Below, piece by piece: positions 10,297 through 40,017 of a stretch of 64,000 nt of DNA. Where the stretch lies: IMG/VR virus record IMGVR_UViG_3300030099_006786; one strand, 5' to 3'. Position 1 is the first letter of the stretch. The number at the start of each line of letters is the position of its first letter. Made by a program: the position numbers and the translations under genes. The DNA is from an uncultured virus (IMG/VR IMGVR_UViG_3300030099_006786). Its lineage: Duplodnaviria > Heunggongvirae > Uroviricota > Caudoviricetes. The notes beneath the pieces are model-generated. The model was not told where the DNA came from. It saw only the letters and a program-made list of their open reading frames with translations, and searched no databases.

Positions 10297-10554
10297 TTAC
10301 AAAGAAACCAATTTAATATGCGCACTAGGTACCAGTGTGATATTACCAAGCTTAAACCAATACACTGTATACATGTTATACAGGAACCGCTGACCGGTAC
10401 GCTTCATATCTATAACAATCCCCAGCGCCTCATGCCTCTCGTCAATCATAATAAAATCTGGTGTATAGTTATAGCCTGTAAATTTCACTAAATCCCCTAC
10501 GCTAAACACGTATGGATCGTTTTTCGACTCATTGGCGCCTGTACCATCACTCAC
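10297..10554 (-). CDS. VGDLV-family small SH3/KOW-like protein
   Basis: FSVGDLVKF...LGIVID...YTVYW. Confidence 0.75.
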   Translation of the reverse strand: MSDGTGANESKNDPYVFSVGDLVKFTGYNYTPDFIMIDERHEALGIVIDMKRTGQRFLYNMYTVYWFKLGNITLVPSAHIKLVSL

Positions 10555-10566
10555 ATAATTAACTAG

Positions 10567-10800
10567 CTAACACTTTTTTAATCTGTGTATGGTATGCATC
10601 CAATCACGTGAAACATCTGCGTTGCTTTTCTTAATCCACCATATACGTGCCATATTCATTAGCGGCGCCTCTGGCTCTCTTGGTTCGTCGTATAATTCTA
10701 GAATGACTGCTATACCACCATGGCATGTACATGTCACTAAGTCACCCACCTTAAGATTATGATCTGGTGGCTCGTCGAAGAAATCTTTCACCCGGTCCAT
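10567..10800 (-). CDS. VGDLV-family small SH3/KOW-like protein
   Basis: Start moved to MDRVKDFF; LKVGDLVTC..IAVILE...ARIWW. Confidence 0.7.
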   Translation of the reverse strand: MDRVKDFFDEPPDHNLKVGDLVTCTCHGGIAVILELYDEPREPEAPLMNMARIWWIKKSNADVSRDWMHTIHRLKKC

Positions 10801-10944
10801 TACACCCACACTTATACGTAGTGTAAATCTGGTGAAAATTTTGGGGCGATTTTTTACGGCATGGATATTTTCAATTTTTCTCAGCGCTATTGAAAACAGG
10901 CTATACACCGTGTCAGGGATATGTCAACTCTATGGGACATAGAT

Positions 10945-10971
10945 CCCGGTAGGGGGGTGGGGGGTACCCCC
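10945..10971. other. G-run element with 12-bp palindrome GGGGGTACCCCC
   Basis: cccggtaggggggtggggggtaccccc in non-coding DNA, flanked by TGTCA boxes. Confidence 0.8.
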
Positions 10972-10984
10972 TGTCAATTGTCAG

Positions 10985-11140
10985 TTAATTGTCAGAATGA
11001 TAATCGCGTTTATAACATTTAATACCATCATATAATACACACGCATATATGTATAAGGCTAATGGTGTATAGAACCCAAGGATAAGCCCCTTACTAACTA
11101 CGTTTTCAACTACCTTATTTATTTTATCTCTTCTCGACAA
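10985..11140 (-). CDS. Small membrane-associated protein (51 aa)
   Basis: GGGAGAG RBS, TTG start, MSRRDKINKVVENVVSKGLILGFY...; CTAATTA motif upstream. Confidence 0.5.
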   Translation of the reverse strand: MSRRDKINKVVENVVSKGLILGFYTPLALYIYACVLYDGIKCYKRDYHSDN

Positions 11141-11206
11141 TCAATCTCTCCCTAAACAGTTTATTATATTATTAATTAGTACTGTATTCGTTTATGTTCG
11201 CGCGCA

Positions 11207-11293
11207 TCAATATGCCATTAGCAACACAAACATAGCTGTCCACATAACGGCCGCTAAACAATCGTAAACTTTCATCTCGGTGGTGTACTGCAT
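11207..11293 (-). CDS. 28-aa hydrophobic peptide
   Basis: AGGAGAG RBS directly after a promoter; MQYTTEMKVYDCLAAVMWTAMFVLLMAY. Confidence 0.5.
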   Translation of the reverse strand: MQYTTEMKVYDCLAAVMWTAMFVLLMAY

Positions 11294-11318
11294 GCAATTC
11301 TCTCCTTTGTATACAATT

Positions 11319-11372
11319 ATTATAACTGATCTCGCGCAACAAATCAAGCGCAAGATGTCAAGGAATTGTCAA
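11319..11372 (-). promoter_or_regulatory. sigma70-type promoter with upstream TGACA boxes
   Basis: TTGATT-17-TATAAT; boxes 14 and 25 bp upstream of -35. Confidence 0.7.
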
Positions 11373-11383
11373 GGAATTACTTT

Positions 11384-11439
11384 CAATGCGGACAATAATT
11401 GACTTGACACACAATGCGGACAGAATATGGCTTGACACT
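11384..11439 (+). repeat. 28-bp tandem direct repeat x2 (CAATGCGGACA-N8-CTTGACAC)
   Basis: Copies start at 11384 and 11412. Confidence 0.85.
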
Positions 11440-11466
11440 TGACGATAATGATAGAGCGTATATACT
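11439..11466 (+). promoter_or_regulatory. Candidate plus-strand sigma70 promoter
   Basis: TTGACG-16-TATACT, no ORF downstream. Confidence 0.45.
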
Positions 11467-11543
11467 AAGTCTTTAAACAAATTCAAACATAAACAGATAC
11501 ACCATCATAAAACATAATATAATTGTCATACATACGCGTACAC

Positions 11544-11747
11544 TTACGTACCACCGGAAGCTACTGACGAATATAGGCCTTCAACCACAGGAATCGCTAC
11601 TTGCTGTAAACACTTTAATGAATTGTTATATAAAGTGTAATTGTTTTTATCCTTATCTACTACTACACAAAAGGCTTTTACTCTACTGTGATGTAATGCT
11701 TTTCTTTTTATTAATTCTCCTATATTAAACATTACTATTCTCGCCAT
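11544..11747 (-). CDS. VGDLV-family small protein (divergent)
   Basis: FNIGELIK...CVVVD. Confidence 0.55.
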   Translation of the reverse strand: MARIVMFNIGELIKRKALHHSRVKAFCVVVDKDKNNYTLYNNSLKCLQQVAIPVVEGLYSSVASGGT

Positions 11748-12015
11748 CTAATTCCTTAGCTTGTTCCGTCATTCTCGCTATGTCCGAAACAGTTAAAGGA
11801 TTTTCTTTTCTACGTTTGTTTTGTTCTCGCAGCAATTTGTTGTATCGCTTTTTCACGTACTTAACAACATGTAGATTCTCGATACCAATTAATGAATATC
11901 TACGTTTACCCTCCATTGTCACAGCCTTCTTATCTGGCTTGGTTAGAATTGTCTCAGTGCCGATCAATTTACCGTCCACTAAATTCAATTCTGTTTTGCT
12001 TACGTAATAATTCAC
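11725..12015 (-). CDS. Hypothetical protein
   Basis: GTGA overlap with upstream ORF, AAGG RBS. Confidence 0.65.
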   Translation of the reverse strand: MNYYVSKTELNLVDGKLIGTETILTKPDKKAVTMEGKRRYSLIGIENLHVVKYVKKRYNKLLREQNKRRKENPLTVSDIARMTEQAKELDGENSNV

Positions 12016-12308
12016 TCAGAAACTACCTTCAAAGGTTCGCCGGTAGCGTACAGCTTTGCAGCAAATTTACGCAATTGTGTGACACGATTCTGCGCGGTTT
12101 TCAACTCGGCCATAATTTCATCAACCTCAATCAAAGCGGCCGAAAGGTTAGAAAGAATCTCAGGTTCCGACATTTCGATACCTCCAACGCCGTCACTATT
12201 ACGCACGTTGAACATATTAGCAGAGTACCAATTCCCTTTATTAGAGCGGCAGATTTTGAGATCACCGGAAAGTTCTGATTCGGGGATAAATACGTTGTTA
12301 CCTGACAT
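12012..12308 (-). CDS. Hypothetical protein with C-terminal coiled coil
   Basis: Start moved to MSGNNVF behind CAGGAGG RBS. Confidence 0.7.
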   Translation of the reverse strand: MSGNNVFIPESELSGDLKICRSNKGNWYSANMFNVRNSDGVGGIEMSEPEILSNLSAALIEVDEIMAELKTAQNRVTQLRKFAAKLYATGEPLKVVSE

Positions 12309-12319
12309 TTGTTTGTCCT

Positions 12320-12606
12320 CCTGTGGACGGTTGGAAAGTGGGGGATCTCTTTTTATACTCGCGGCCCTTTCGAGTGTGTCCATTAATTTGCGGCATAATT
12401 GCCGCTAAGTTATGAGGATGGCTAAACCTCTTATAGCCGTTTATTGGGAGTTTTCATTATCTTAACCTCGGCGTGCTTCGCCTCATGGGTGGGAATTGCT
12501 CCCTCTGTGACTAATCCAAGCCCGCCACAGTTACCGGCTCTATGCAGTTGGGGGTTTTCATTATCTTGACCTCTGGCGCTTGGCGCTTTGCGGGTTATGG
12601 GTACGA
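12320..12606 (-). ncRNA. Candidate structured ncRNA with duplicated GAGGUYAAGAUAAUGAAAACYCCCAA motif
   Basis: ~290-nt gene-free gap, several GC hairpins, two 24/26-identical copies at 12444-12469 and 12548-12573. Confidence 0.55.
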
Positions 12607-12942
12607 TTAGATGCCTTCACCATCTTGGAGTGCGGCGAGTGCTGCCTTATCATCTTCGGTCAAGTGCTCTTTGGCTTTCTTGCGAAGGCTTGCGGCGCTC
12701 ATGCGCGTGGGGTTTTTGTGCTCGGCGTTACAGCCTGCGGCGAACGACTCGGCCCATGAAGGATCGGGGAAGTCCATGACGGCCTGCTTGCCTTGCGTGC
12801 TGGAGTGCCGAAAGACAACCCACATTTTAGGGCCGACTTGCTCAACAGTCCAGCCTTGCAGTTGCTTGCGCGTTGGAGGCGCAGGTGCGGGCTTGTACTG
12901 TTTGGCGGTTTGGATTTTGATTTGATCGATGGCTCTTTGCAT
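12607..12942 (-). CDS. Hypothetical early protein
   Basis: AAGGGG RBS, GC-rich ORF. Confidence 0.75.
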   Translation of the reverse strand: MQRAIDQIKIQTAKQYKPAPAPPTRKQLQGWTVEQVGPKMWVVFRHSSTQGKQAVMDFPDPSWAESFAAGCNAEHKNPTRMSAASLRKKAKEHLTEDDKAALAALQDGEGI

Positions 12943-12952
12943 GGTTTACCCC

Positions 12953-13126
12953 TTACTGGATTTGCTTGATGTTCAAGAAGTCGGTGATGGCGGTAGCCGG
13001 TACCGATGAGTCACGGAGAAAGATAGCCCTTGCTTCTTCTTTTGAGTGAGCACGCACGATCCGAGTTTGACGCGGGCGCATTGGCTCGCGGAGGTGGAAA
13101 GTGATGCGGAAGGTGTCGAGTTGCAT
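12953..13126 (-). CDS. Hypothetical early protein (57 aa)
   Basis: Start moved to MQLDTF behind AAGGAG. Confidence 0.75.
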   Translation of the reverse strand: MQLDTFRITFHLREPMRPRQTRIVRAHSKEEARAIFLRDSSVPATAITDFLNIKQIQ

Positions 13127-13149
13127 AGTTTTCTCCTTTCTATACATAT

Positions 13150-13203
13150 AATATAACACCGGGAGGCATAAAAGTCAAGGATTTAATTGTCAAGAAAATG
13201 TTA
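13150..13203 (-). promoter_or_regulatory. Composite early promoter
   Basis: TTGACT-17-TG-TATATT; TGACA-like boxes at +15 and +26. Confidence 0.85.
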
Positions 13204-13371
13204 AGCCACTTTTTTCATGTCTTGGACAAGTGCAGCGGTTTGCTTACACATGTGGCCGGGGATTTTCACAAGCCACATGCTACTGTCCCAGTCGGCTTTA
13301 CCGATGATGGTGCCGACCTTCCAGCCTTGGAACTTGGTGTTTACTTTAACTGTGTTACCGATTGCGAACAT
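13201..13371 (-). CDS. VGDLV-family small SH3/KOW-like protein
   Basis: MFAIGNTVKV...GTIIG...WLVK; AAGGAG RBS. Confidence 0.75.
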   Translation of the reverse strand: MFAIGNTVKVNTKFQGWKVGTIIGKADWDSSMWLVKIPGHMCKQTAALVQDMKKVA

Positions 13372-13398
13372 GATAGACTCCTTTCTTTCTATACTTAT

Positions 13399-13452
13399 AA
13401 TATAACACCCGCGAGCGTTAAAGTCAAGCACTTAATTGTCAAGAGAATGTCA
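13399..13452 (-). promoter_or_regulatory. Composite early promoter
   Basis: TTGACT-17-TG-TATATT; boxes +15/+26. Confidence 0.85.
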
Positions 13453-13584
13453 GGGAGTAGTTTGCGAAAATAAGACAATAAGAGCCAGCAAAATAGCATC
13501 GAACTTGATCATCAGTCTCACAAACTCAGGCGATACTGAATGTGCAGCGAGCACACCCAGCTTTTTCTGTTTCAGTCGCAACAT
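13450..13584 (-). CDS. Small hydrophobic protein (44 aa)
   Basis: GGGAG RBS; stop lies in a TGACA box. Confidence 0.4.
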   Translation of the reverse strand: MLRLKQKKLGVLAAHSVSPEFVRLMIKFDAILLALIVLFSQTTP

Positions 13585-13793
13585 GTTGGGTGCTCCCAGT
13601 TTGCTACTTGCCAATCGCTGATCACTTCTTCGGCGTGAAGTGAGTCAACGTAGTTACTCCACGCTTCGGAGCGAGCAACAATGTCAGGCTCGCCGTCGCG
13701 TTCATGCTGCTGTTGCACCATCGGAAGGATCATCTCAGTGAACTGATCGACAGCATCGGACCAGAGGATAACAGAATCAAGTTGTGAGGCCAT
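13572..13793 (-). CDS. Hypothetical early protein
   Basis: Start moved to MASQLDS behind AAGGAG. Confidence 0.75.
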   Translation of the reverse strand: MASQLDSVILWSDAVDQFTEMILPMVQQQHERDGEPDIVARSEAWSNYVDSLHAEEVISDWQVANWEHPTCCD

Positions 13794-13822
13794 AGAATAA
13801 TCTCCTTTCTTTCTATACTTAT

Positions 13823-13876
13823 AATATAACACCCGCGAAGGTAAAAGTCAATGGTGATCTTGTCAGGGAATTGTCA
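13823..13876 (-). promoter_or_regulatory. Composite early promoter
   Basis: TTGACT-17-TG-TATATT; boxes +15/+26. Confidence 0.85.
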
Positions 13877-13881
13877 GACAA

Positions 13882-14283
13882 TTACCACTTCAACGGATCG
13901 TTAGGTCGGTCCCAAATATCAACACGCTGCTGCTCTGACGGCTCGCGCTCATCGGTATCGCTACGTGTGAACCGCATAGTGCGGCGGCTTGCGGCCATGC
14001 TGGTGGCCTTAGCTTGCTCGCGGGCTCGGATGCCAGCGTCGATAAAATCATCCTCGGACACGGAGAAACTAAACCCCTCTTCAATCTCGGTAGGCTCTCG
14101 GTCAATAACCCAGTCAGGATCATCGTGACGTGCAACCTGCTCTAAGAGGTCATCGTGTAGTTCTAAGGCTCCAGTGAAGCCATCGCCATCGTTGTCAAAC
14201 TCTGAAGCGAAGAACGTCAGGGCGTTCATAATCAGATTCACGTCCGACTCGGTAAGTAAGATTTTCAAAACTTGATCATTCAT
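13882..14283 (-). CDS. Acidic hypothetical early protein
   Basis: AGGGGA RBS, 133 aa. Confidence 0.75.
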   Translation of the reverse strand: MNDQVLKILLTESDVNLIMNALTFFASEFDNDGDGFTGALELHDDLLEQVARHDDPDWVIDREPTEIEEGFSFSVSEDDFIDAGIRAREQAKATSMAASRRTMRFTRSDTDEREPSEQQRVDIWDRPNDPLKW

Positions 14284-14292
14284 GATAATCCC

Positions 14293-14394
14293 CTAACAGG
14301 TTGCCCACTTGAAGGCGAGGAAAATAAGGGCGGACCAACAGGTCACGTCTGCGATAATGAGAGCGGCCATCATGCCGTTGCGGTTTTGAAGCAT
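14293..14394 (-). CDS. 33-aa single-TM peptide
   Basis: AAGGAG RBS after promoter; MLQNRNGMMAALIIADVTCWSALIFLAFKWATC. Confidence 0.6.
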   Translation of the reverse strand: MLQNRNGMMAALIIADVTCWSALIFLAFKWATC

Positions 14395-14418
14395 TTGCTT
14401 TCTCCTTTCTACCCTTAT

Positions 14419-14472
14419 AATATAACACCGAAACAGGCAGAAGTCAATAGTTTAATTGTCAAGCAATTGCCA
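14419..14472 (-). promoter_or_regulatory. Composite early promoter
   Basis: TTGACT-17-TG-TATATT; boxes +15/+26. Confidence 0.85.
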
Positions 14473-14629
14473 AGAGCGTCAAATCGCCGGATCTTTCGCT
14501 TCTCGCACTCCGCGAACGGAACCAATAAATTAATATATCACATGCAAAAGCGTAAGCTCCGCGCTCAAGCACGATCCCATAACCGCCATGCATTGAATTC
14601 CTATATTTCACCAGATCACCGACTTGCAT
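14459..14629 (-). CDS. VGDLV-family small protein (56 aa, not in ORF track)
   Basis: MQVGDLVKYRNSMHGGYGIVLE...IYWF. Confidence 0.75.
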   Translation of the reverse strand: MQVGDLVKYRNSMHGGYGIVLERGAYAFACDILIYWFRSRSARSERSGDLTLLAIA

Positions 14630-14945
14630 GCATTTTCTCCGTTACATGGCGACACTTACGACGCCAACCAAAACCGGCGCATGTGCAGCCCCAGACGTGG
14701 CCGTCGTATGTTACGGTATACGTGTTGCCCTTGCTTCCTTGAACGCTCCACGTTTGAACCTCGCCCAATTTAGACGCACTTTTATAAGGCTCGTAAACCA
14801 TAACGTCTGAAATAGTGTTAAGGGTTGCCGTTTCAGGTACGGGAAGCCAAAACTGACCAGAAACCGCCCACTTTTGACCTTTAGTGTCAGTATAAAGCAT
14901 AGGCGGCATGCTTACAATTACCGGTAATTCCTCTAAATTGCTCAT
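14616..14945 (-). CDS. SWIM zinc-finger protein
   Basis: VQGSKGNTYTV...WGCTCAGFGWRRKCRH. Confidence 0.85.
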   Translation of the reverse strand: MSNLEELPVIVSMPPMLYTDTKGQKWAVSGQFWLPVPETATLNTISDVMVYEPYKSASKLGEVQTWSVQGSKGNTYTVTYDGHVWGCTCAGFGWRRKCRHVTEKMHASR

Positions 14946-15140
14946 TTATGCCTCTGCTGGTAAAATTGTCGCTACACTTAAAGTTGTGTAAGTTTCAATC
15001 TCTTGATCGCTAATGCCCGGATCGAGCATGGTTGCGTGCATCATTAGCGCGGTGATAACTGAATCCAGACCGAAAGCGGTGCGATCAAATGGTGTTAGCT
15101 GACTTTCATCGTCAGTGCGTATAAGTGGAAGGCTTAACAT
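14946..15140 (-). CDS. Hypothetical early protein
   Basis: Start moved to MLSLPLIR behind AAGGAG. Confidence 0.7.
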   Translation of the reverse strand: MLSLPLIRTDDESQLTPFDRTAFGLDSVITALMMHATMLDPGISDQEIETYTTLSVATILPAEA

Positions 15141-15162
15141 ATTTCTCCTTGGTTCATTAGTA

Positions 15163-15215
15163 AATATAACCTCGCAGTGGATAAAGTCAAGTTTAATTCT
15201 GTCAAGCACTTGTAA
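15163..15215 (-). promoter_or_regulatory. Composite early promoter
   Basis: TTGACT-16-TATATT; boxes +15 and degenerate +26. Confidence 0.75.
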
Positions 15216-15417
15216 AGGCTTCTAAAAACATTTCGTGAAACTTCAAAACTGTACCACAACCAATAAAAGCCACGTTATAGAATGATGTGTATGTTCTACT
15301 CTCATCTATTTCTTCTGGCACTGTTTCCATAATCATAGCGATCCGATGCTCAGGCATATTAGCCTGATGTGTTGTAGTTTTGACCTTGACAAGATCACCG
15401 GGCTTAAATTTGCCCAT
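15202..15417 (-). CDS. VGDLV-family small protein
   Basis: MGKFKPGDLVKVK...YNVAF...FHEMFLE. Confidence 0.75.
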   Translation of the reverse strand: MGKFKPGDLVKVKTTTHQANMPEHRIAMIMETVPEEIDESRTYTSFYNVAFIGCGTVLKFHEMFLEAFTSA

Positions 15418-15743
15418 TAAAAAGGCTTCCGTTCGCTCATCGGTGAACATTCCCACACCAGCGGGTTCATGATCACCGGGTTACCGGTTTGATACTTGGC
15501 GAGGTTCACATGACAAGAAGTTGTCATAGAATGAAAACCATTAGCAGGTGCAGTAAAGTCTGCGATGACCATAACACCGGCAGGCGTCCGTTCTCCGATC
15601 TTCAAATTGTAGCTATACAATTCCGCGCTTCCATTTGGGTAGGACACGCTTGTCAAAGAACGCCTGTGATTACGGGCACTTAGCCCATTCTGCCATGCTT
15701 TGATAACGCCATCATTATTTAATCGTGGGCCTGTAATTGTCAT
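15417..15743 (-). CDS. Hypothetical phage protein
   Basis: AGGAG RBS; LYSY...SMTTSCH. Confidence 0.75.
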   Translation of the reverse strand: MTITGPRLNNDGVIKAWQNGLSARNHRRSLTSVSYPNGSAELYSYNLKIGERTPAGVMVIADFTAPANGFHSMTTSCHVNLAKYQTGNPVIMNPLVWECSPMSERKPF

Positions 15744-15752
15744 TTTTTACTC

Positions 15753-16988
15753 CTATGAGTCTATGGCGATGATTCGCTCAGTGGTGGAAAAGTAGGGGCG
15801 AGCTGCGTAATTTTTAGTGGTCATCCACATACGTTGGCATTTACTTGGGATAGGCTTGGGTGCCATCAAGTCTGTCAGGATGATGTGACCGTCAAAATTA
15901 TGTTCATTGACGTACTTGGTGGGCGCGTTAAAGCACGTGCCGCCGCTCAATACACGCTCAGTCTTACGGGTCTGACCCTTCTTCCAAGTATATACCTTGT
16001 CCTCTGCAACTTGCGTATCGAAAGGGATCACGGTGAACTCGGCAATCTCGGCCAGCTTGTTCAATTCAGAGAAGAACGCGGTGAGCATGCCATCATCGAC
16101 AGAACCAGACTGATCGATAGAGATAGCGATCTTAGCTTGGCGACGTACACGCTTGCCGGGGTGGACCTTTGGGAATCGCTTGTTAAGACGGCGAGGGGTC
16201 GAGCGTTTGTCAGCACGTTGTGAAGTTTTAACAAAGTACCGGAGCACCTTGCGCCAGTCGATTTTAGTAGCGATACGATCCATAATATCCTGACGCATCG
16301 ACGACGACACCGTACCCCAATTGCGGGCCTTCTCAGCTTCCTCTGCTGCTTTTTTGATGGCTTCCTTCATGCGTTCGCTGGCAATCTCTTGAGTGGTGCC
16401 AGAGGCATCACCGAAGTCATCGTGTGAATCGAGAGAGTCCATGTCACCGAAGGGATCACCAGAGCCCTGACCACCTTTACCATCGCCATCTTGCTGCTGG
16501 TCCTCGCGCATTTGCTTCAACGCTTCCAGATACCACTCGTAAGTTTTGAACGGAGGCAGATCCTTAAACATACCTTCACCGGGGATGCATGCCTTCATTG
16601 GTTCCTTGCCGATGGTAGGGCCGGGGTTTGCCTCGCTTGGTAATTCGCTGGCGATATGACAATTAATAGCCAAGTCCATCGCGATGTTATCGATCCGCTT
16701 GAGTCCATCGGCAGGCTTGCGAGCAGTAACGTGCTCGAAAATCAAGTGGTAAAATTCATGTTTAAGAACACCCAGCTTGTGAGAGTCACTAAGCTGGCCC
16801 ATAAACTCAGGGTTATACATCAACTCAAATTGTGCAGTGTTAGGGTTGACACGCACACCAGCGGTAGGGATCGCAGTAGTGGCAATCTTATCAATGCGAC
16901 GAGACAGGGCAGCGAAAAACGGCTCACGCATAAGCAGGCGAGCGGTGTGCATGTTAAGGTTGAATGGCTTGTTAGTATCGTCGGACAT
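15753..16988 (-). CDS. DUF2201-type metallopeptidase + VWA domain protein
   Basis: HEFYH, NIAMDLAIN, MIDAS-like DQSGS, GGT, LTD. Confidence 0.9.
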   Translation of the reverse strand: MSDDTNKPFNLNMHTARLLMREPFFAALSRRIDKIATTAIPTAGVRVNPNTAQFELMYNPEFMGQLSDSHKLGVLKHEFYHLIFEHVTARKPADGLKRIDNIAMDLAINCHIASELPSEANPGPTIGKEPMKACIPGEGMFKDLPPFKTYEWYLEALKQMREDQQQDGDGKGGQGSGDPFGDMDSLDSHDDFGDASGTTQEIASERMKEAIKKAAEEAEKARNWGTVSSSMRQDIMDRIATKIDWRKVLRYFVKTSQRADKRSTPRRLNKRFPKVHPGKRVRRQAKIAISIDQSGSVDDGMLTAFFSELNKLAEIAEFTVIPFDTQVAEDKVYTWKKGQTRKTERVLSGGTCFNAPTKYVNEHNFDGHIILTDLMAPKPIPSKCQRMWMTTKNYAARPYFSTTERIIAIDS

Positions 16989-17010
16989 TGTTCTCTCTCC
17001 TTACATATAT

Positions 17011-17064
17011 AATATAGCACCGTAGGGGCACAAAGTCAATGGTTTAATTGTCAAGAGAATGTCA
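17011..17064 (-). promoter_or_regulatory. Composite early promoter
   Basis: TTGACT-17-TG-TATATT; boxes +15/+26. Confidence 0.85.
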
Positions 17065-17274
17065 GGGAAGATCATAATGTGCGCGCAATCTGACCTCATC
17101 TATCCAACCTTGATCGCCGTCAATGTGGAGTTTGAACCTCCACCGCTTGTTAGCTATATCCCCGTACTTGGCGCGTGCTGTTTCTTCTTTGTCAAGAATA
17201 ATAGCAGGCTTGTTATCCTGTACGCTATAAATCAAGTCGCCTATTTTTAGGCTATCAGTCCACGTCCGAGACAA
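17062..17274 (-). CDS. VGDLV-family small protein
   Basis: LKIGDLIY...AIILD. Confidence 0.75.
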   Translation of the reverse strand: MSRTWTDSLKIGDLIYSVQDNKPAIILDKEETARAKYGDIANKRWRFKLHIDGDQGWIDEVRLRAHYDLP

Positions 17275-17491
17275 TTATTAAATCTTCCTCATGGAAACGC
17301 ATGCGTTCCTCACTTTTCAACCATTTAACTTCGTACAATTTACGCTGTTGTTCAGGCTCTTTAATATCTGTGACGATCCCGACTCCGTGGGCGCGCTTAA
17401 AGCTGCGACCCAAGCCGCCGGGACCGGACAGTCTAACTATATCACCGATCTTAGGTGCCCTCAACAGTGAGCGATTAGCGGGCTTATGCAT
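17255..17491 (-). CDS. VGDLV-family small protein (YodC-like pattern)
   Basis: PKIGDIVRLSG...GIVTDI...YEVKW...FHEEDL. Confidence 0.75.
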   Translation of the reverse strand: MHKPANRSLLRAPKIGDIVRLSGPGGLGRSFKRAHGVGIVTDIKEPEQQRKLYEVKWLKSEERMRFHEEDLIIVSDVD

Positions 17492-18569
17492 CGCCCCCAC
17501 CAAGAATTTCGACAAGGTGATCACTCACTCGCACACCAGAGGCAACTTGATGCTTATGAAGTGCAACCACGTTCTCAACAATATCAGCTTCACCGAGAAC
17601 GGTCCAGAGCTTCATAGCTACCTCGGAAGGCAGTGAGATAAAGTATTCGGCCAAGTTATTAATTTGGTCGTCGGTCAATGTTTCCTTGAACACCTCGGAC
17701 GCCTCGAACTTTTCAATCATAGCAGCGTGGTCATTGATGCCCCACTTCTCAGTCTTGGCTAATTCACCACGGTCAAGAATATCCTCAACAGTGACCTGCC
17801 ACTCATACTTCTCAACGAAGTCACGGAGCGATACAGCGGCCTCGAAACCAAGGAACGCAGTCGCAAGGTTGAAAAGCATGTCACGATCGCCACCTTCATC
17901 GAATACGCCAACACCATCGGCGGTGTCGCAGTAGCGAACCCATGAGCGACGAGAAGGATAAACCTTGTTAGGCTCAAAATCACCATCATGCTCCAGATGC
18001 TTGCGGTTGTGATTAATGAAGTCCCACACTACAGAAGGCACGCGACCATTGGCCCACTTCAACCAGTCCTCAGTGGAAGGCTCCACGTCGAACACAGTCC
18101 ACCGGTCCAATTCTGCCGGGTCCATTTCACCGACCTGATACTGAGCGCCGTGCTCGCCACCGTTGACAGCGGCGACAACCAGAGTCTCAGGGTGAAGGTG
18201 CCAGCCGTTAATCTTGCGGCTATCGGTCAACTCGAAAAGACCCTGACGGACCTCTTGAGTCGCACGGTCAACCTCATCCAAGAACAGGAGAACAGGCTGC
18301 TCACAGGCTGTAACAAGCCAGTCAGGAGCGTTCCACGTGGTAGCCTTGCGGCCGTTGATAGACGTGTCGGCCGTGTCAGGCAGGCCAAGCAAGTCACCCT
18401 CAGTCATCTGAGAAGCGCGGCGCTCGACAACCGGCAGGCTGCGAGTCTCAGCAATTTGGTAAACCACCTGTGATTTACCAACACCGTGACGACCACGGAT
18501 AAGCACCGGAAGGCGCGAGTTAAGGACGTGGGGGGCGACGGTCAGGAATGTTGCGAAGTCGATAGCCAT
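17484..18569 (-). CDS. MoxR-type AAA+ ATPase
   Basis: Walker A GRHGVGKS, Walker B LLFLDE, AAVN, MDPAELDR, PSRRSW. Confidence 0.92.
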   Translation of the reverse strand: MAIDFATFLTVAPHVLNSRLPVLIRGRHGVGKSQVVYQIAETRSLPVVERRASQMTEGDLLGLPDTADTSINGRKATTWNAPDWLVTACEQPVLLFLDEVDRATQEVRQGLFELTDSRKINGWHLHPETLVVAAVNGGEHGAQYQVGEMDPAELDRWTVFDVEPSTEDWLKWANGRVPSVVWDFINHNRKHLEHDGDFEPNKVYPSRRSWVRYCDTADGVGVFDEGGDRDMLFNLATAFLGFEAAVSLRDFVEKYEWQVTVEDILDRGELAKTEKWGINDHAAMIEKFEASEVFKETLTDDQINNLAEYFISLPSEVAMKLWTVLGEADIVENVVALHKHQVASGVRVSDHLVEILGGGDA

Positions 18570-18618
18570 GATGTGATTCTCCAGTTGAGAGTGTTTTAGT
18601 TCTTTGCCTTACTCTATA

Positions 18619-18685
18619 AATATAACACCGGAATGCTTTAGAGTCAAGTTATTTATTGTCAAGCGAATGTCAAGAGATTTGTCAA
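18619..18685 (-). promoter_or_regulatory. Composite early promoter with three upstream boxes
   Basis: TTGACT-17-TG-TATATT; boxes +15/+26/+38. Confidence 0.85.
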
Positions 18686-18691
18686 TTAAGA

Positions 18692-18778
18692 TGGTAGCTG
18701 ATGCGGGACTCGAACCCGCAAGCCCATCCGGGCGACAGATTTTAAGTCTGTTGTGTATACCAATTCCACCAATCAGCC
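18692..18778 (-). tRNA. tRNA-Leu(UAA)
   Basis: Cloverleaf, ACAGA-CTTAAAA-TCTGT anticodon arm, long variable arm, TTCGAG, encoded CCA. Confidence 0.95.
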
Positions 18779-18799
18779 ATTTCATCCTCTTACTCTAAT

Positions 18800-18854
18800 A
18801 ATATAACCGCCTGACCCCCGCCTGTCAAGGCGAGAGTTGTCAGGGAAATGTCAA
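18800..18854 (-). promoter_or_regulatory. Composite early promoter (tRNA-Leu)
   Basis: TTGACA-17-TATATT; boxes +15/+26. Confidence 0.85.
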
Positions 18855-18856
18855 GC

Positions 18857-19750
18857 TCAGTTGACATTATCATAGTGCTCGGTCAATCCGAGATCCTTTA
18901 TGATTTCCTTAGTAATTCCAGATGGATACGCATAGTCCCATGCGCGCTGGACAGCATGCTTATTGCCCTTAGTTGGAAATACTTGCTTTATAGCCTTGTC
19001 AAGACTTTGCTCAGTTGGCTGGAGCCAACCCTTCGGTGGGTCGAGTGCAGGGACCAGCGAAGAAGGCGGAAGATCGTCGCCCTCGGCGGCTGCGTAACGC
19101 AGTGCGGTATCGTTAGCTTGCACTAATTTACTAATCTGATCGCGGGAAGTATATGGCGACTGGTTTGGTGCACCGAGTTTGCGCGCATCAACATGTTTGA
19201 CAATTAGAATAGGGCGGTTTGCGTGGCAGTCATCCCAAAGAACCGACTGAACATAACGCAGAGTTAGAATATCACGACGCCATTCACCGCTTAAATCGTA
19301 GCCTGTTGAGCGGATCGGAATCATCGAGCCCACACCGATACCTGTTTCACGCGCGGACTCCAACGCGGCGATGCGTATGCGACGTGTTTCCTCAATGAAA
19401 ATTTGTTTATCGACCTTGACAGCTTCACAGGTGCGGCGCGTGTGACCCTTGATGCCGCAATAACCACAAGTCACTTTCTTCATGCGTTCAGCTTTCGCTG
19501 CCTTGTTGGTGACTTTCTTGCCAGTAGCAAGGTCAATCTTGGTACGCTTGATATACTCCTGACGCTTGGCTTCAGCGCGCTCGGTATACCACTCAGCATC
19601 TTGTTCCTTTCCATCGGCGCGGGATTGTTCGGCCATAGAGATAGCGCCCTCGTACTGACTTTTGATTTGTGCTGAGAGTGATGGACACTTGCGTTTGTTG
19701 TGACCGCGTTGATAGCAATGTGAGCAGGTGACAGTACCAGACCAAGACAT
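18857..19750 (-). CDS. Protein with two CCHC zinc knuckles
   Basis: CSHCYQRGHNKRKC and CGYCGIKGHTRRTC. Confidence 0.85.
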   Translation of the reverse strand: MSWSGTVTCSHCYQRGHNKRKCPSLSAQIKSQYEGAISMAEQSRADGKEQDAEWYTERAEAKRQEYIKRTKIDLATGKKVTNKAAKAERMKKVTCGYCGIKGHTRRTCEAVKVDKQIFIEETRRIRIAALESARETGIGVGSMIPIRSTGYDLSGEWRRDILTLRYVQSVLWDDCHANRPILIVKHVDARKLGAPNQSPYTSRDQISKLVQANDTALRYAAAEGDDLPPSSLVPALDPPKGWLQPTEQSLDKAIKQVFPTKGNKHAVQRAWDYAYPSGITKEIIKDLGLTEHYDNVN

Positions 19751-19775
19751 ATAATTTTCTCCTTTCTATACTTAT

Positions 19776-19829
19776 AATATAACAACCTGACAGCAAAGGT
19801 CAAGGTAAATTATGTCAAGCGGTTGTCAA
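19776..19829 (-). promoter_or_regulatory. Composite early promoter
   Basis: TTGACC-16-TG-TATATT; boxes +15/+26. Confidence 0.8.
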
Positions 19830-19991
19830 GAGATCCACATTTTTCTCGAAACACCATTCCTTGTGACCGGGACCGAAAAGCGATAGGCCCTGTGTAGTCC
19901 ATAGAACATGGATGCCAATATCGCCGCGTACTTCAAGTATAACGCCGATTTGCTCAGTAAGAAAATGTTTAACAATATCACCTACTTGCAT
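19815..19991 (-). CDS. VGDLV-family small protein (58 aa, not in track)
   Basis: MQVGDIVKHFLTEQIGVILE...VLW...EW. Confidence 0.8.
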   Translation of the reverse strand: MQVGDIVKHFLTEQIGVILEVRGDIGIHVLWTTQGLSLFGPGHKEWCFEKNVDLLTTA

Positions 19992-20127
19992 TGACTAACT
20001 CCAATTTATCCCACTTGAAAGACTCGCCAGTGTGCAAGTGAATCCACGGTCGCGCCCCATCTTCGATGTGTACGACAATCGCCACGGTGCCATCATAAAT
20101 AATTTTAACTAAATCACCGACTTTCAT
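19978..20127 (-). CDS. VGDLV-family small protein (49 aa, not in track)
   Basis: MKVGDLVKIIYDGTVAIVV...LELVNASR. Confidence 0.8.
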   Translation of the reverse strand: MKVGDLVKIIYDGTVAIVVHIEDGARPWIHLHTGESFKWDKLELVNASR

Positions 20128-36558: not shown

Positions 36559-39500
36559 CTAAACTTGATTTTGATAACTAAAAAATACTGGTAGTTCCTC
36601 CAAACCTGATTTAGTAGCGTACCAAACATCATCTTCGTTGCCTGTAATTTTAATTCTGCCGTTCTTTCCAATTGCCACGTAAACTGGCTGCATTGGACCG
36701 GTTTTAATAAAGTCTTTGTATTTATCCATAAACTTATCAGCCGGATCTCTGTTAACTCTGGACACAAACGGCCTCAATTCTTCAACGGGTACCATCGTAT
36801 GATACCGCATATTGTTTGTATTTGTTGGCACGTCATAAGCCATCACGCCACCTTCTTGCCAATCGTCAACAATACTTTGTAATGAAAGACGGGGAGTGAC
36901 AGATTTACCAGACGCCCTATCAAAAGTAGATATATCAAAACCAGCTTGGGTCTGATATTCTCTAACAGTTCGAATTGTACCCTTTACGTTTGTGCGATGC
37001 ATCGGAGATATGCGAAGTATCTTCAACCCTTTAATTTTCATTAAGCCGGGAATTAAAATACGATCACGATATTGAACCCTGCCTTGGCTACCTAGTAACT
37101 CGAATTTAATTTCATAGGTTCCAACTTGATTTCTACCAATGTCTTGCGTATCACCCACTGTTCTAACGGTGGTCACACCTTCAATACCACGGATTTCTGT
37201 TTGTGTTTCTTGGACCTCTCCACCGACGTCTTTTGAAATTGAGATATTAATTTTAACGCTATACAATCTAAGATCATATCTCTCGTCTTTTTCCTTCAGC
37301 AGCTTGTCAATCCTATCAATCTGAGCCTCCACACTCTCCTGTGCTGGTCTTGGTTCCCCAATTGTGCCTCTAATTGAGCCCTGATTGCGTGCCTTCCTTG
37401 TGATGGCAGGAGCACCCATTCTAGTAAGCTGTGTCTGTACCTCTTGGTCAAAGTAATCAGGCTTACCAGCATCATCTCCGTCTGTCTGGATTGGACCGAC
37501 ACGACGGATTTGCTGGTTGACGATTGGGCGCAAATACTTGTAGTAAGACACATACTTTTCAACCTCGTCCATCTGCTCAAAGTTTTGGTTAATCCAGCGA
37601 GCGATCATCATCGCCTTCATCCCGTCTGCGGTGTCTTGAACAGGGGTGTACATGTTTTCAATTTGTCTAATCTGAGCGAACGGCTGGCGTCCTGACGCAA
37701 TATCATCCTTTCGCGCTTGTGCGAGAGCCAATATACCACTCAGCGCATCTTGGATTGTTTTCTGTGCTGCTTGGTTCATCATCTCAGGGTTCTCGTTAAA
37801 GAAGTCCAGTATGTCTTGTGTGACTTGAATTTCTTCCTCAGATGTTCTATAGTTCATATTGATCTTATACATCCATCCAATCGGCTGAGTCGGATAACTG
37901 CTGTTCTGCCCGACTGCGCTGTTGGTTCCTTGGATGATAAAGTGTGAGTCCTTAGCTAAAATTATTCTCGCGGCTTTCGCAGCATACTCAGGACCAAATT
38001 TCATTTGTTGTTGGTCGGGATTTTCTTGCTTGGCTTTGTAAAGGTTCTCCAAGTTTCTCGCCATGTTGCGGTTTAGATCGGGATTCTCTGTTCTCGGTGG
38101 GTGTGTGTTAGACATTGGGCTGCCAAAGATTCTGCTGTATAATTCACCTATATGTCTATCATAATCTTGCCCATACATCTGAATCACTTGTGGGATTTGT
38201 CCGCCGTCGTTGATTACGTTCTGAGAGCCATCACTTCTCCAAGCAAACTCCAGCGAACCGCCACTGCCTTCCGTCACGCTCCAGTGTTCGAACTTCTTAT
38301 CAACCAAATCTCCACGAGTTCTGTCGTATGGACCTTTAGCTATGTACTCACCATCAACCAATTGGCTTCTGATTGCTTGTATGTGATCTTGCATATTGTC
38401 TTCAAGGTTGCGAAGCTCTCTCGCGATAAACTCGACTTCGCTGGCTGCGTCGTCAGCATTGTCGGCGCTCGCAGTCTCGTTTTTTGTGATACGAACGCGC
38501 AAGTGTGCGGTTTGCTTCTCGGCACCAGCGGGAACGTGATCGGGCTGTGCGCCTATAAGCATTACTACTTCGTATTCAATTTCGCCATCTTCACCGGGCA
38601 GTTCGTATAAGAGATCATCTAAGTCAATCTCATCCGTAAAGGCGCTGGATTCTCTGCTGTACGAATCGAAAGGAATATAGTCCAGCATATCATTAATGTC
38701 ACCGGAGTCAACTTCGGCTGCGGAATAATAGTTGTTGTCTCGTCTTACAATGTCAGGCCAACCTAAATCAATTTCAAAGCTCATCTCGCTGCTTATGGAT
38801 ATGTATGCGTATTGTCCATCACCACCCCAATCATTGGGATCTTGAACCTCTGCGTAAATACCCGTGTAGTCTCCTTCATAATTATTAACAACTTCATCGA
38901 CTGCTTCTTGAATTTCGTCGATGTTAAGCACTCCGTCGAAACTAACATCAGGGTTTTCTTCCTGTAAAAACTCATTCATTTCTTGGAAGCCATATGTATC
39001 ATTAGAGTGTTCGCCGGTTTCCTTAACAGAGTAAATGGGCGCGTTCTGAATAAACCAGCTAATGTATTCCCAAAGTTCTTCGTCCGGTGCGTTGTTACTG
39101 CGTCCTTTAATTTGGTAGAGTATTTGTTCGTCCTCGTTCCAAGTCATAGTCACATAAGACGATGATGCCTTGCGCTTACCTTTGCGTTCGCGGAGCGATA
39201 CAAGCACACCACGCGAGTCTGAACCGCAGTGTCCCATACGCTCGCCTTCGATAGAGCAATTATATGTGTTCAGATTATACCAGTAGAGTCCGTTATCAAA
39301 CTGGTGAATAACCATGTCTGGATCTTCTTTGTTCTCTAACTCTTCTTTGGCTATGTTATATGCCATGTTAATATCGTCTTCGCCCTTGATTAGCTCATAG
39401 TTGGTAGGCTCGTCGTTGAGCCAAGCAAATAACTTATCATAGTTGTACCACCAGCCTTTAAACTCGCGCAACATTGTGGCGGCGAGTTCTTCTTTTACTT

Positions 39501-40017
39501 TCTCGACCTTTTCGGATTCTACGCCTGCCTTGCTCAGTGCCTTGACTGCTTTCATAAAGGCTTTGCGCCAAGCCGCTGAAGGTTTCGCTAAGACGTTCAT
39601 TACATTTTGAGCCACGAAAACAATGCGTTTGTTTTGCTCAATCATTTCATCGTCGTACTCCTTGCGTACAACAGGCTTGCCATCGACTCCACCGGTGTAG
39701 TATGGCGTCATTGTTCTGGCTCTGTAATTGTCTACGGAGCCGGGGGATCTATCCTCTGGAGCAATAGCTTGAATCTCGTCCTTGAAGACTCTTTCCATAA
39801 AGCCTCCCCAATTGTTTTGAGCAAAGGTTCTTCCATTGCGGGGCAACTCATACTTCTTCCATTCGTTGCCCGCGTATGTCTTTGCTTTCTCAGGTGCGTT
39901 CGGCATCGCTGACTCAATAAAATCAACAACGCTCTCGGGCAAGCCTATGTCTCGCAAGCCCTCTGTTAAAACTTCTTCATAAAGATAATCAAACCAATTA
40001 CCAGTGGAAATGTCCAT
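36559..40017 (-). CDS. Large multidomain protein: PcfJ-like domain and C-terminal ParB-like segment
   Basis: EGERMGHCG..LVSLR...QIKGRSNNAP; PVYVAIGKNGRIKITGNED. Confidence 0.7.
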   Translation of the reverse strand: MDISTGNWFDYLYEEVLTEGLRDIGLPESVVDFIESAMPNAPEKAKTYAGNEWKKYELPRNGRTFAQNNWGGFMERVFKDEIQAIAPEDRSPGSVDNYRARTMTPYYTGGVDGKPVVRKEYDDEMIEQNKRIVFVAQNVMNVLAKPSAAWRKAFMKAVKALSKAGVESEKVEKVKEELAATMLREFKGWWYNYDKLFAWLNDEPTNYELIKGEDDINMAYNIAKEELENKEDPDMVIHQFDNGLYWYNLNTYNCSIEGERMGHCGSDSRGVLVSLRERKGKRKASSSYVTMTWNEDEQILYQIKGRSNNAPDEELWEYISWFIQNAPIYSVKETGEHSNDTYGFQEMNEFLQEENPDVSFDGVLNIDEIQEAVDEVVNNYEGDYTGIYAEVQDPNDWGGDGQYAYISISSEMSFEIDLGWPDIVRRDNNYYSAAEVDSGDINDMLDYIPFDSYSRESSAFTDEIDLDDLLYELPGEDGEIEYEVVMLIGAQPDHVPAGAEKQTAHLRVRITKNETASADNADDAASEVEFIARELRNLEDNMQDHIQAIRSQLVDGEYIAKGPYDRTRGDLVDKKFEHWSVTEGSGGSLEFAWRSDGSQNVINDGGQIPQVIQMYGQDYDRHIGELYSRIFGSPMSNTHPPRTENPDLNRNMARNLENLYKAKQENPDQQQMKFGPEYAAKAARIILAKDSHFIIQGTNSAVGQNSSYPTQPIGWMYKINMNYRTSEEEIQVTQDILDFFNENPEMMNQAAQKTIQDALSGILALAQARKDDIASGRQPFAQIRQIENMYTPVQDTADGMKAMMIARWINQNFEQMDEVEKYVSYYKYLRPIVNQQIRRVGPIQTDGDDAGKPDYFDQEVQTQLTRMGAPAITRKARNQGSIRGTIGEPRPAQESVEAQIDRIDKLLKEKDERYDLRLYSVKINISISKDVGGEVQETQTEIRGIEGVTTVRTVGDTQDIGRNQVGTYEIKFELLGSQGRVQYRDRILIPGLMKIKGLKILRISPMHRTNVKGTIRTVREYQTQAGFDISTFDRASGKSVTPRLSLQSIVDDWQEGGVMAYDVPTNTNNMRYHTMVPVEELRPFVSRVNRDPADKFMDKYKDFIKTGPMQPVYVAIGKNGRIKITGNEDDVWYATKSGLEELPVFFSYQNQV

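Follow-up and report, generated by a model that had tools for sequence, protein, structure and literature searches.

What occupies the 298 nucleotides (nt) that separate two small genes of an uncultured phage, and what would this stretch do there? The gap in question lies at 12309..12606 on the minus strand of the window, by which we mean the whole 64,000-nt stretch of IMG/VR record IMGVR_UViG_3300030099_006786 that was analysed. It has a G+C content of 0.50 and is bounded by the stop codon of the open reading frame (ORF) at 12607-12942 and by the ATG at 12308. An earlier reading of the DNA letters by themselves, here called the sequence-only reading, had described the gap as an unrecognised structured RNA. 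This description has stood, since Rfam gave no match and compensatory changes back three helices and a pseudoknot. From the comparison of relatives we conclude that the gap encodes a real, conserved and covariation-supported structured RNA outside Rfam, and a literature search yielded no description of the element. The reading that we prefer, with a probability of roughly 45%, is that the element is a cis-acting leader of a conserved downstream gene, YY, in which a pseudoknot gates the initiation of translation.

A conserved structured RNA in an intercistronic gap

On what would be an early polycistronic mRNA the modules of the element run, from 5' to 3', C-rich box, H0, M1, X, H2, M2, Y, V and Z, and the predicted structures of three of them, hairpins H0 and X and pseudoknot Z, are backed by compensatory changes. 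Pairing of H0 (12576..12586, minus strand, as are all modules; GCGC-CAA-GCGC) is at least 98.7% among 77 distinct sequences; one pair has CG 67, UG 4 and UA 3, and the second has GC 76 and AU 1. Hairpin X (12505..12530) has a stem of 7 base pairs (bp), CUGUGGC/GUCACAG, and a conserved 12-nt loop, GGGCUUGGAUUA. All 54 distinct sequences keep it paired (100%), with counts of UA 30, CG 23 and UG 1 at one pair, GU 35, AU 15 and GC 4 at another, and UA 53 and CG 1 at a third. The frequent G-U pair (35/54) indicates that the strand that folds is the gene-sense RNA. Taken jointly, X and H0 are 99.6% paired, and changes on both sides occur at 4 pairs, against 1.2 +/- 0.6 in shuffles (0/500). Both stems belonged to the model used for aligning; the covariation is also present in a MAFFT alignment.

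Pseudoknot Z (12341..12375) combines stem 1, ACUCG/CGAGU, with a stem 2 in which the GGG of the loop pairs with a CCC that follows an A-rich linker, AUAAAAAGAGAU. Among 68 distinct sequences stem 1 has CG 39, GC 19 and UG 4 at one pair and UA 57 and CG 7 at another, and stem 2, formed between loop and 3' tail, has GC 47 and AU 16 at one pair and GC 47 and AU 18 at the next. Stem 2 stood outside the aligning model, so its pair counts are not fitted. The covariation score of Z reaches 0.322, against 0.160 +/- 0.011 in shuffles (0/500), and 81% of it is paired, against 32-55% in slid controls; a first MAFFT alignment of 25 sequences gave a like picture. Two further searches were discarded. An all-against-all test of column covariation in 33 long-form sequences recovered the X and Z pairs and was dropped, its 165 pairs being mostly G/U noise. 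The word TATAAAYAWAGA, tried as a repeated regulatory word, has 5 matches in place of 3.3 expected, and three of these are 5' untranslated regions (UTRs) of early promoters, not copies of Z.

The relatives were collected by several routes. A 20-nt word from the motif was found in 10 IMG/VR contigs, which share about 100 nt around it. With the upstream protein of 111 amino acids (aa) as query, 21 loci with the same intergenic region were obtained. A pattern for Y, the most conserved block of the element, matched one contig of a metagenome-assembled genome (MAG) and at least 120 stretches of marine metagenomes. In total there are at least 152 Y-pattern matches with at least 114 distinct cores in IMG/VR, marine metagenomes and the one MAG contig, some of the metagenome and IMG/VR records being the same contig. 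Among 185,579 species genomes the Y pattern has no other match than this MAG contig (L150; 12.9 kb, Neomarinimicrobiota), in which the complete element follows another upstream gene. Either a phage contig was binned with the MAG, or the match hints at the host. In five other relatives (L012, L013, L023, L029 and L031) one or two tiny hydrophobic ORFs (e.g., M-NDFL..LLMLAFGLGIAIGEAI) lie between the 111-aa gene and the element.

The element is single-copy. Three models, R1 (M2-Y-Z), R2 (Z) and R3 (H0-M1-X), each match the window once, R1 with E = 1.3e-17 and its next match at 0.4, and in five viral contigs of 47-203 kb all matches with E < 0.1 fall within one locus. R1 is weak on contigs of the Y' type, with E = 0.34 on a 203-kb record. 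In some relatives M2-Y is replaced by a AAUGCGAUAG box with a different stem, and some have an extra upstream hairpin or a module W of the Z kind. Whatever its function, the element marks this phage lineage cleanly in marine metagenomes and is a candidate for a new RNA family.

A duplicated motif on the minus strand was central to the sequence-only reading, and here a pattern scan and a repeat search agree with it. The 26-nt pattern GAGGTYAAGATAATGAAAACYCCCAA has exactly two sites in the window, both on the minus strand, at 12548-12573 (M1) and 12444-12469 (M2), and matched 0/100 shuffles. The repeat search returned the same pair of 26-nt copies, 92% identical (24/26) and spaced by 104 nt. By regex-based module counts, 59 of the 86 complete distinct loci contain two M boxes, the architecture of the window being the commonest (37 loci), and 27 contain a single M box, with X missing in 25 of these 27. 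The comparison indicates that the second motif copy and X arose by a 104-nt duplication that is polymorphic among the relatives.

Further claims about the gap fared as follows. Every hairpin that had been listed was located in its place, and the gap does end at a CAGGAGG box, which precedes the ATG at 12306-12308. The gap had also been called the longest GC-rich one free of genes in the early region; it is the sole long GC-rich (0.49) gap without a tRNA. It is among the longest runs lacking a minus-strand ORF of at least 45 aa, and two window gaps of similar length (about 200-225 nt) contain tRNA genes. An ORF of 123 aa that reaches 12383 is an in-frame extension of the gene at 12308; its ATG is missing in relatives, so that the start at 12308 behind CAGGAGG is the plausible one. 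Rfam 15 returned only 5 tRNAs from the whole window at the gathering score and 0 matches from 12100-12800 at E <= 10. Ten relatives (13 kb) gave only chance-level matches of the eukaryotic snoRNA or miRNA kind, all far below the gathering scores.

The remaining modules are of several kinds. Y (12414..12438; GGCUA-UAA-GAGG-UU-UAGCC-AU-CCUC) would fold as an H-type pseudoknot or as two mutually exclusive hairpins. A link of 2 nt between its 5-bp stem and the second stem is tight for pseudoknot geometry; a pseudoknot and a switch between two hairpins are equally likely. The optional hairpin V (12390..12405; GCGGCA-AUUA-UGCCGC) is also among the results of the repeat search, and three relatives (L178, L185 and L247) have GCAGC..GCUGC at the same place, a change from G-C to A-U. 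H2 (12470..12482; GGCG-AAGCA-CGCC) stands directly before M2 and is, by eye, unchanged in 13 of 33 long-form sequences, with no covariation. The small hairpin GGGA-GCAAU-UCCC (12491..12503) belongs to a sub-lineage only, with GGAA..UUCC in a few relatives. The C-rich box ACCCAUAACCC (12592..12602; consensus AACCCnAACCC) is found in many relatives also before the second motif copy. Some pairings proposed by eye found no covariation support: those of the X loop with CCCCCAA or with CAAG of M1, of the GAGG of M with the CCUC of Y, and of the C-rich box with GAGAGGU.

Module W, which is present in relatives only, has a clear loop-tail complement, AAGAC/GUCUU, in one sub-type (8 of 35 distinct sequences). 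The commonest sub-type is without this pairing, and there an alternative distal CCAG partner is seen. In L014, L031, L125 and others, the 5' strand GCUGG of W has a proximal CCAGC and, after a UAUAAAUAUAGA linker, a distal (U)CCAG(CA). In L014 the distal partner forms 7 perfect pairs, and the arrangement looks like mutually exclusive helices.

Pseudoknot Z, the start boxes and the YY gene

In 72 of the 105 distinct contexts, a U-rich stretch leads from Z to the AUG of the conserved YY gene (91-100 aa; M..YY(V/I)(S/T)...), and this AUG lies 8-12 nt beyond the 4-nt core of Z stem 2. A tetramer resembling the Shine-Dalgarno (SD) sequence precedes 6 of these 72 starts within positions -20..-4. Of the 62 long ORFs in the window, 47 have such a tetramer if any start is allowed and 34 if the longest start is taken. 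The YY starts are mostly without an SD sequence, and Z thus stands where that sequence would be.

Under the leader reading, Z at the SD position of the YY gene would gate the binding of the 30S subunit, serving as an operator for a protein or a ligand, and the basic YY protein would be the obvious candidate for a protein acting there. The upstream hairpins and the mini-ORFs opened by the M boxes may set the fold, or may load ribosomes or keep them on the untranslated stretch of 300 nt. In the window itself the YY gene (11725..12015, minus strand; 96 aa, with the basic motif REQNKRRKEN) starts with a GTG that overlaps the stop codon of the gene before it. That gene, of 98 aa and no Pfam or PHROG family (12012..12308, minus strand), is inserted between Z and YY, and the hairpin GUCC-ACAGGA-GGAC (12315..12328, minus strand), which holds its ribosome-binding site (RBS), is part of the inserted gene cassette and not of the conserved element. 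Here control would then act on the inserted 98-aa gene, which has a strong RBS of its own, or would be partly vestigial. Several unrelated small gene cassettes (L008, L023, L025, L029, L032, L033 and others) begin with a portable RBS hairpin, (CAAC)CGUCC-AnGGA-GGAC(A). In L032 and L033 a relative of the 98-aa gene with its RBS hairpin occurs without the RNA element, preceded by an apparent remnant of the 3' half of Z.

The YY protein has 144 homologues, all unnamed. Its basic stretch REQNKRRKEN is invariant and is predicted to be helical. Its AlphaFold2 model, with a mean confidence score (pLDDT) of 88.8, has the order beta-beta-alpha-beta-alpha-alpha, and the ESM Atlas held for it only a viral cluster of 'hypothetical protein' at 0.75.

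From its sequence, M is read as a candidate ribosome-binding box, GAGGU and AUG AAA separated by 8-10 nt, from which a mini-ORF of 5-8 codons starts. M1 (GAGGU-CAAGAUA-AUG AAA ACC CCC AA) has such an RBS-like box and opens an ORF of 16 codons; M2 (GAGGU-UAAGAUA-AUG) opens MKTPNKRL-stop, which ends at a UAA inside Y. The invariant core of M is AAGAnAAUGA after GAGG(U), and the sole change of the start codon is from AUG to GUG. Of 70 distinct contexts, 67 have a spacer of 8-10 nt between GAGG and AUG, and in 69 of 71 the AUG is exactly 19 nt from GGCU, although the intervening sequence varies. A relaxed form of the motif occurs at 116 IMG/VR sites, 98 of them outside the family, and at 59 of these 98 the ATG opens an ORF of at least 50 codons, as at an ordinary gene start; this is why M is read as a ribosome-binding box. 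The M2 ORFs have 5 codons (MKILQ, MKFRQ etc.) or 8 codons (MKTPxQRL), end just before or inside Y and would presumably be translated.

M encodes no conserved peptide, because there are 31 different M2 peptides in 70 contexts, the column entropy of the mini-ORFs has no clean 3-base periodicity, and the frame of the 16-codon M1 ORF is broken by deletions of 1 or 2 nt in 4 of 17 sequences. The free sites of the M1 ORF lie at second codon positions, the remainder being constrained as hairpin X. In relatives the second copy reads AAUGAAGAUCC, AAUGAAAAUCC or AAUGACGUUCC, and its GAAAAC end is lost. The two window copies are unusually alike and M2 is AAUGAAGAUCC in most relatives, which suggests that the copies were exchanged in the lineage of the window. 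The proposal of a tandem aptamer in the sequence-only reading did not survive, as the two copies head different structures (hairpin X and module Y) and 27 of 86 relatives have a single copy. On structure that reading was right, on what the repeat is it was wrong.

The lack of periodicity in the mini-ORFs is one of several observations that weigh against the leader reading. By minimum free energy, the gap as a whole does not fold better than shuffled sequences (z = 0.32; 59/100 fold equally well), and the case for structure therefore rests on comparative data. Within a 43-sequence subset of those data, the whole structure did no better than shuffles (280/500), and in 43 sequences all 9 of 9 pairs of Y are invariant, with no covariation. 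Alignments A5 and A6 were fitted to the model stems, Z stem 2 excepted. The YY protein belongs to no Pfam or PHROG family, no regulator was identified, and a Foldseek search of the PDB with its model gave no match with E <= 0.001 (best 0.22). The contigs from RNA libraries that are described below show neither transcript ends nor strand and may hold DNA. Finally, the gene after Z is not always YY: 13 of 105 contexts have an RBS-hairpin cassette (GUCC-N6-GGAC, as here) and 20 of 105 have other inserts. That the element is kept when the next gene differs also fits a function independent of that gene.

The same features allow a bolder proposal, which we regard as doubtful, namely that the element represents a new class of phage translational control RNA. 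In it a pseudoknot would replace the SD sequence, and decoy start boxes with mini-ORFs would capture ribosomes and pass them on or withhold them. The whole would be a loading platform, gated by a ligand or protein or resembling an internal ribosome entry site, that is conserved in abundant uncultured marine jumbo phages. If this is true, abundant and uncultured giant phages of the ocean control an early gene by a compact SD-replacing pseudoknot behind decoy starts, and a well-defined, covariation-rich RNA joins the few known translational operators of phages. Early gene control would also become approachable in phages that have yet to be grown, and a small portable pseudoknot/start module would be available for testing SD-independent initiation.

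Early-region setting and competing explanations

The window is part of a large phage that encodes a DnaE-type polymerase, GroEL, a class II ribonucleotide reductase and five tRNAs, with nearly all genes on the minus strand. The phage is marine and uncultured and has a genome of about 200 kb; among its relatives, an IMG/VR contig of 203 kb has a completeness rating of 100%. No close DNA relatives among cultured phages were found by blastn, and the DnaE polymerase matched GenBank phages at <60% identity only (about 27-31% in the listed ones). Of the GroEL literature consulted for host identity, PMC5332604 bears, in its accessible part, no relation to this lineage.

The element lies in a region at 12-20 kb that is richer in G+C (0.46-0.50 vs about 0.38). 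GC skew nearly vanishes in this early-gene island (12001-20000), whereas the genome, of ~0.38 G+C, is steadily negative in skew. On its minus strand a DUF2201 putative metallopeptidase with a VWA-like domain and an AAA_5 (MoxR/dynein-like) ATPase are encoded at 15753-16988 and 17484-18569; the PHROGs label 'HNH endonuclease' of the DUF2201 gene is not backed by Pfam domains. Elsewhere in the window, ORFs of 1152 aa (36559-40017, minus strand) and of 552 aa (44019-45677, next to the GroEL gene) are without a Pfam or PHROG match.

On the minus strand, 13150..13178 contains the early promoter closest upstream of the gap (TTGACT-17-TATATT with TG). Further near-identical copies lie on the same strand at 13399-13427, 13823-13851 and 14419-14447, and a fifth near-identical unit at about 19765-19830 (near 19776). 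Each promoter unit consists of stacked TTGAC boxes, TTGAC(T/C)-17-TATATT with TG and then a common 5' UTR, AUAAGUAUAGAAAG(A)AAGGAG. All five units precede a small gene, and such repeated promoter/UTR cassettes could mediate gene shuffling. The gap begins about 545 nt downstream of the nearest promoter, a layout shared by one relative, and no intrinsic terminator was found on the minus strand of 10500-14500. With promoters upstream and no terminator, the gap is accordingly placed within an early polycistronic transcript. Expression data come from libraries X18 and X20 (one sample) and X19 (another study), which are recorded as RNA, and from X17, which is only guessed to be RNA. In metatranscriptomes X18 and X20 a contig extends from Y across one M box into the upstream ORF, with exactly 104 nt left out, as expected of the one-copy form; X17 and X19 cover the upstream ORF only, and stretches without cover carry no weight. 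The X18/X20 contigs fit a co-transcription of the element with the upstream gene.

This contiguity with the upstream ORF bears on the first alternative, in which the element is a stand-alone non-coding RNA, cut from the early transcript and acting in trans as a decoy or sponge for ribosomes or for an RNA-binding factor of host or phage, to which it would present several purine-rich AGAGG/AGGG loops and SD-like boxes. Much in the comparative data would suit such an RNA. It is single-copy and highly conserved, and it is kept whatever follows (33 of 105 contexts are not YY) or precedes it (as in L150). Its modules are gained and lost like beads, and AGAGG-like purine runs recur in M1, M2, Y, the 3' side of X and the loops of Z and W. 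We nevertheless consider it unlikely. The scan of 10500-14500 found no promoter or terminator of its own, the RNA-library contigs join it to the upstream ORF, and in 72 of 105 contexts its 3' module stands next to a start codon. A conserved GGA-type motif for CsrA is also absent, the Y loop being GAGGA in most sequences and GAGGU in the window.

The position behind early promoters raises a second alternative, control at the level of transcription, as at lambda nut/tR1 or HK022 put. H0 and the C-rich, G-poor tracts would load Rho or an antiterminator and so decide delayed-early read-through, with YY perhaps as the factor. Early sigma-70 promoters stand 400-550 nt before the element, both in the window and in one relative, its C-rich boxes flank a 4-bp GC hairpin, and the helix of the YY protein that is rich in arginine and lysine is invariant. 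The C/G ratio of the RNA strand is 1.18 in the gap, compared with a window mean of 0.77, and local values are at the ~95th percentile. Yet this excess is modest and below the 99th percentile, no boxA-like consensus was noticed, none having been sought, and the YY model is a folded beta-alpha protein, unlike the disordered lambda N. A site of this kind would also leave Z, abutting an SD-less start, unexplained, and we find it rather improbable.

A third alternative takes the M boxes for minigenes whose tiny peptides (MKILQ, MKFRQ, MKTPxQRL etc.) are functional products. They would resemble the bar minigenes of lambda, which have two codons, and the alternative module in some relatives even reads AUG CGA UAG. 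The SD spacing and the AUG are invariant (one GUG). The distance from AUG to Y is constant despite the variable sequence, so that every mini-ORF ends in frame at codon 6 or 9, and the AAUGCGAUAG box is conserved in relatives of the Y' type. Against this, the peptides vary widely and show no codon periodicity, and 4 of 17 sequences have a broken M1 frame, even though the nucleotides are near-invariant and change in a compensatory way. Minigenes alone would leave H0, X and Z unexplained, and they are a very unlikely answer.

Even less probable, in our opinion, are elements that act as DNA, either with the M boxes as -10-like promoters (GATAAT/GAAAAT/TACAAT) or with the repeats and palindromes as protein sites, an origin or recombination junctions of cassettes. 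In their favour, the variable base in GAnAAT fits the least conserved position of a -10 box, and gene cassettes are exchanged at both edges of the element. As a sigma-70 promoter M was rejected, being absent from the 20 promoter-like sites of 10500-14500, which include four consensus early promoters; these early promoters of the phage are near-consensus and quite different from M. The distance from H0 to the box varies by 0-8 nt, and the motif is found only here in the window. The G-U pairs of X (35/54) would be A-C mismatches on the opposite strand, and the cumulative GC skew does not turn at the gap.

A CRISPR-repeat mimic (a solitary repeat or RNA anti-CRISPR), raised in the sequence-only reading because AAUGAAAAC in the window's copies resembles the 3' handle of a repeat, and favoured also by the presence of two direct repeats, or a type III antitoxin-like repeat RNA, is highly improbable: the handle-like GAAAAC end is lost in the M2 of relatives, the copies are separated by ~78 nt rather than 30-40 nt, a second copy is missing in 27 of 86 relatives, the scanned neighbours include neither a toxin-like gene nor a cas gene, the 104-nt spacing with unlike sequence between the copies has no head-to-tail units of 34-45 nt as in ToxI, and the downstream proteins are without a family, the YY fold search giving no match at E <= 0.001.

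Comparison with known systems

The preQ1-I and SAM-II riboswitches consist of a hairpin and an A-rich 3' tail, the end of which pairs with the loop. Z has this topology, with a 5-bp hairpin and an A-rich tail that pairs with the loop, and lies likewise directly upstream of a start codon. It differs in having no Rfam match at E <= 10 and a linker of 11-13 nt. In contrast to preQ1-I, the 3' strand of its stem 2 is CCC(C) or CUCU and not a Shine-Dalgarno sequence, and the downstream 98-aa and YY genes have no metabolic annotation and no Pfam or PHROG family. Z was thus rejected as a riboswitch of the preQ1-I type, its topology agreeing but the family model, an RBS in stem 2 and an association with ligand genes all being absent.

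Lambda nutL and nutR with tR1, and HK022 put, are structured RNA sites downstream of early promoters. Like them, the element lies a few hundred nt past early promoters, has a short GC hairpin between C-rich tracts and is followed by the gene of a small basic protein. Unlike them, it has an H0 stem of 4 bp with a loop of 3-5 nt and many extra modules, its basic protein is predicted to be folded, and no downstream terminator is known. In T4-type phages, promoter-stem-loop units form 'mobile regulatory cassettes'. The repeated promoter/5'-UTR units that flank small early genes of the window, and the cassettes shuffled at conserved non-coding junctions, are similar; the element itself differs in being single-copy and without a consensus promoter.

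Fremin, Bhatt and Kyrpides (2023; PMC10690425) obtained 8495 unnamed 'DNAVirus_X' candidate RNAs from intergenic regions of IMG/VR by covariation. Their screen, so far as the accessible part of the paper goes, shares our data source and kind of evidence, and differs in its motifs of 29-151 nt, which include neither a 300-nt array nor a link to an SD-less start. Parts of the element may be among those candidates. The motif words and five contig numbers were absent from three of the paper's supplements, two alignment archives and one table lying outside this comparison.

Among the systems compared, the element appears most like the gene 32 operator of T4 and RB69. As described in the available part of PMC535899, this operator is a pseudoknot in an intercistronic leader, followed by an A/U-rich stretch, with extra ORFs inserted in some relatives. 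The likeness, within that description, lies in a small H-type pseudoknot in the leader of an early gene; between it and the start codon comes an A/U-rich stretch that is less structured and has UAAA-like words. With its length of about 28 nt, the T4 pseudoknot differs, on the same account, in lying >40 nt upstream of a gene with a normal RBS, whereas Z lies 8-12 nt from an AUG without an SD sequence. YY is not recognisable as a single-stranded DNA-binding protein of the kind treated there, the two operators have no sequence similarity, and repression by the gene product would be carried over to YY by analogy only. The element is an RNA of the phage leader or operator kind, with gating of an early gene by its pseudoknot as the candidate function.

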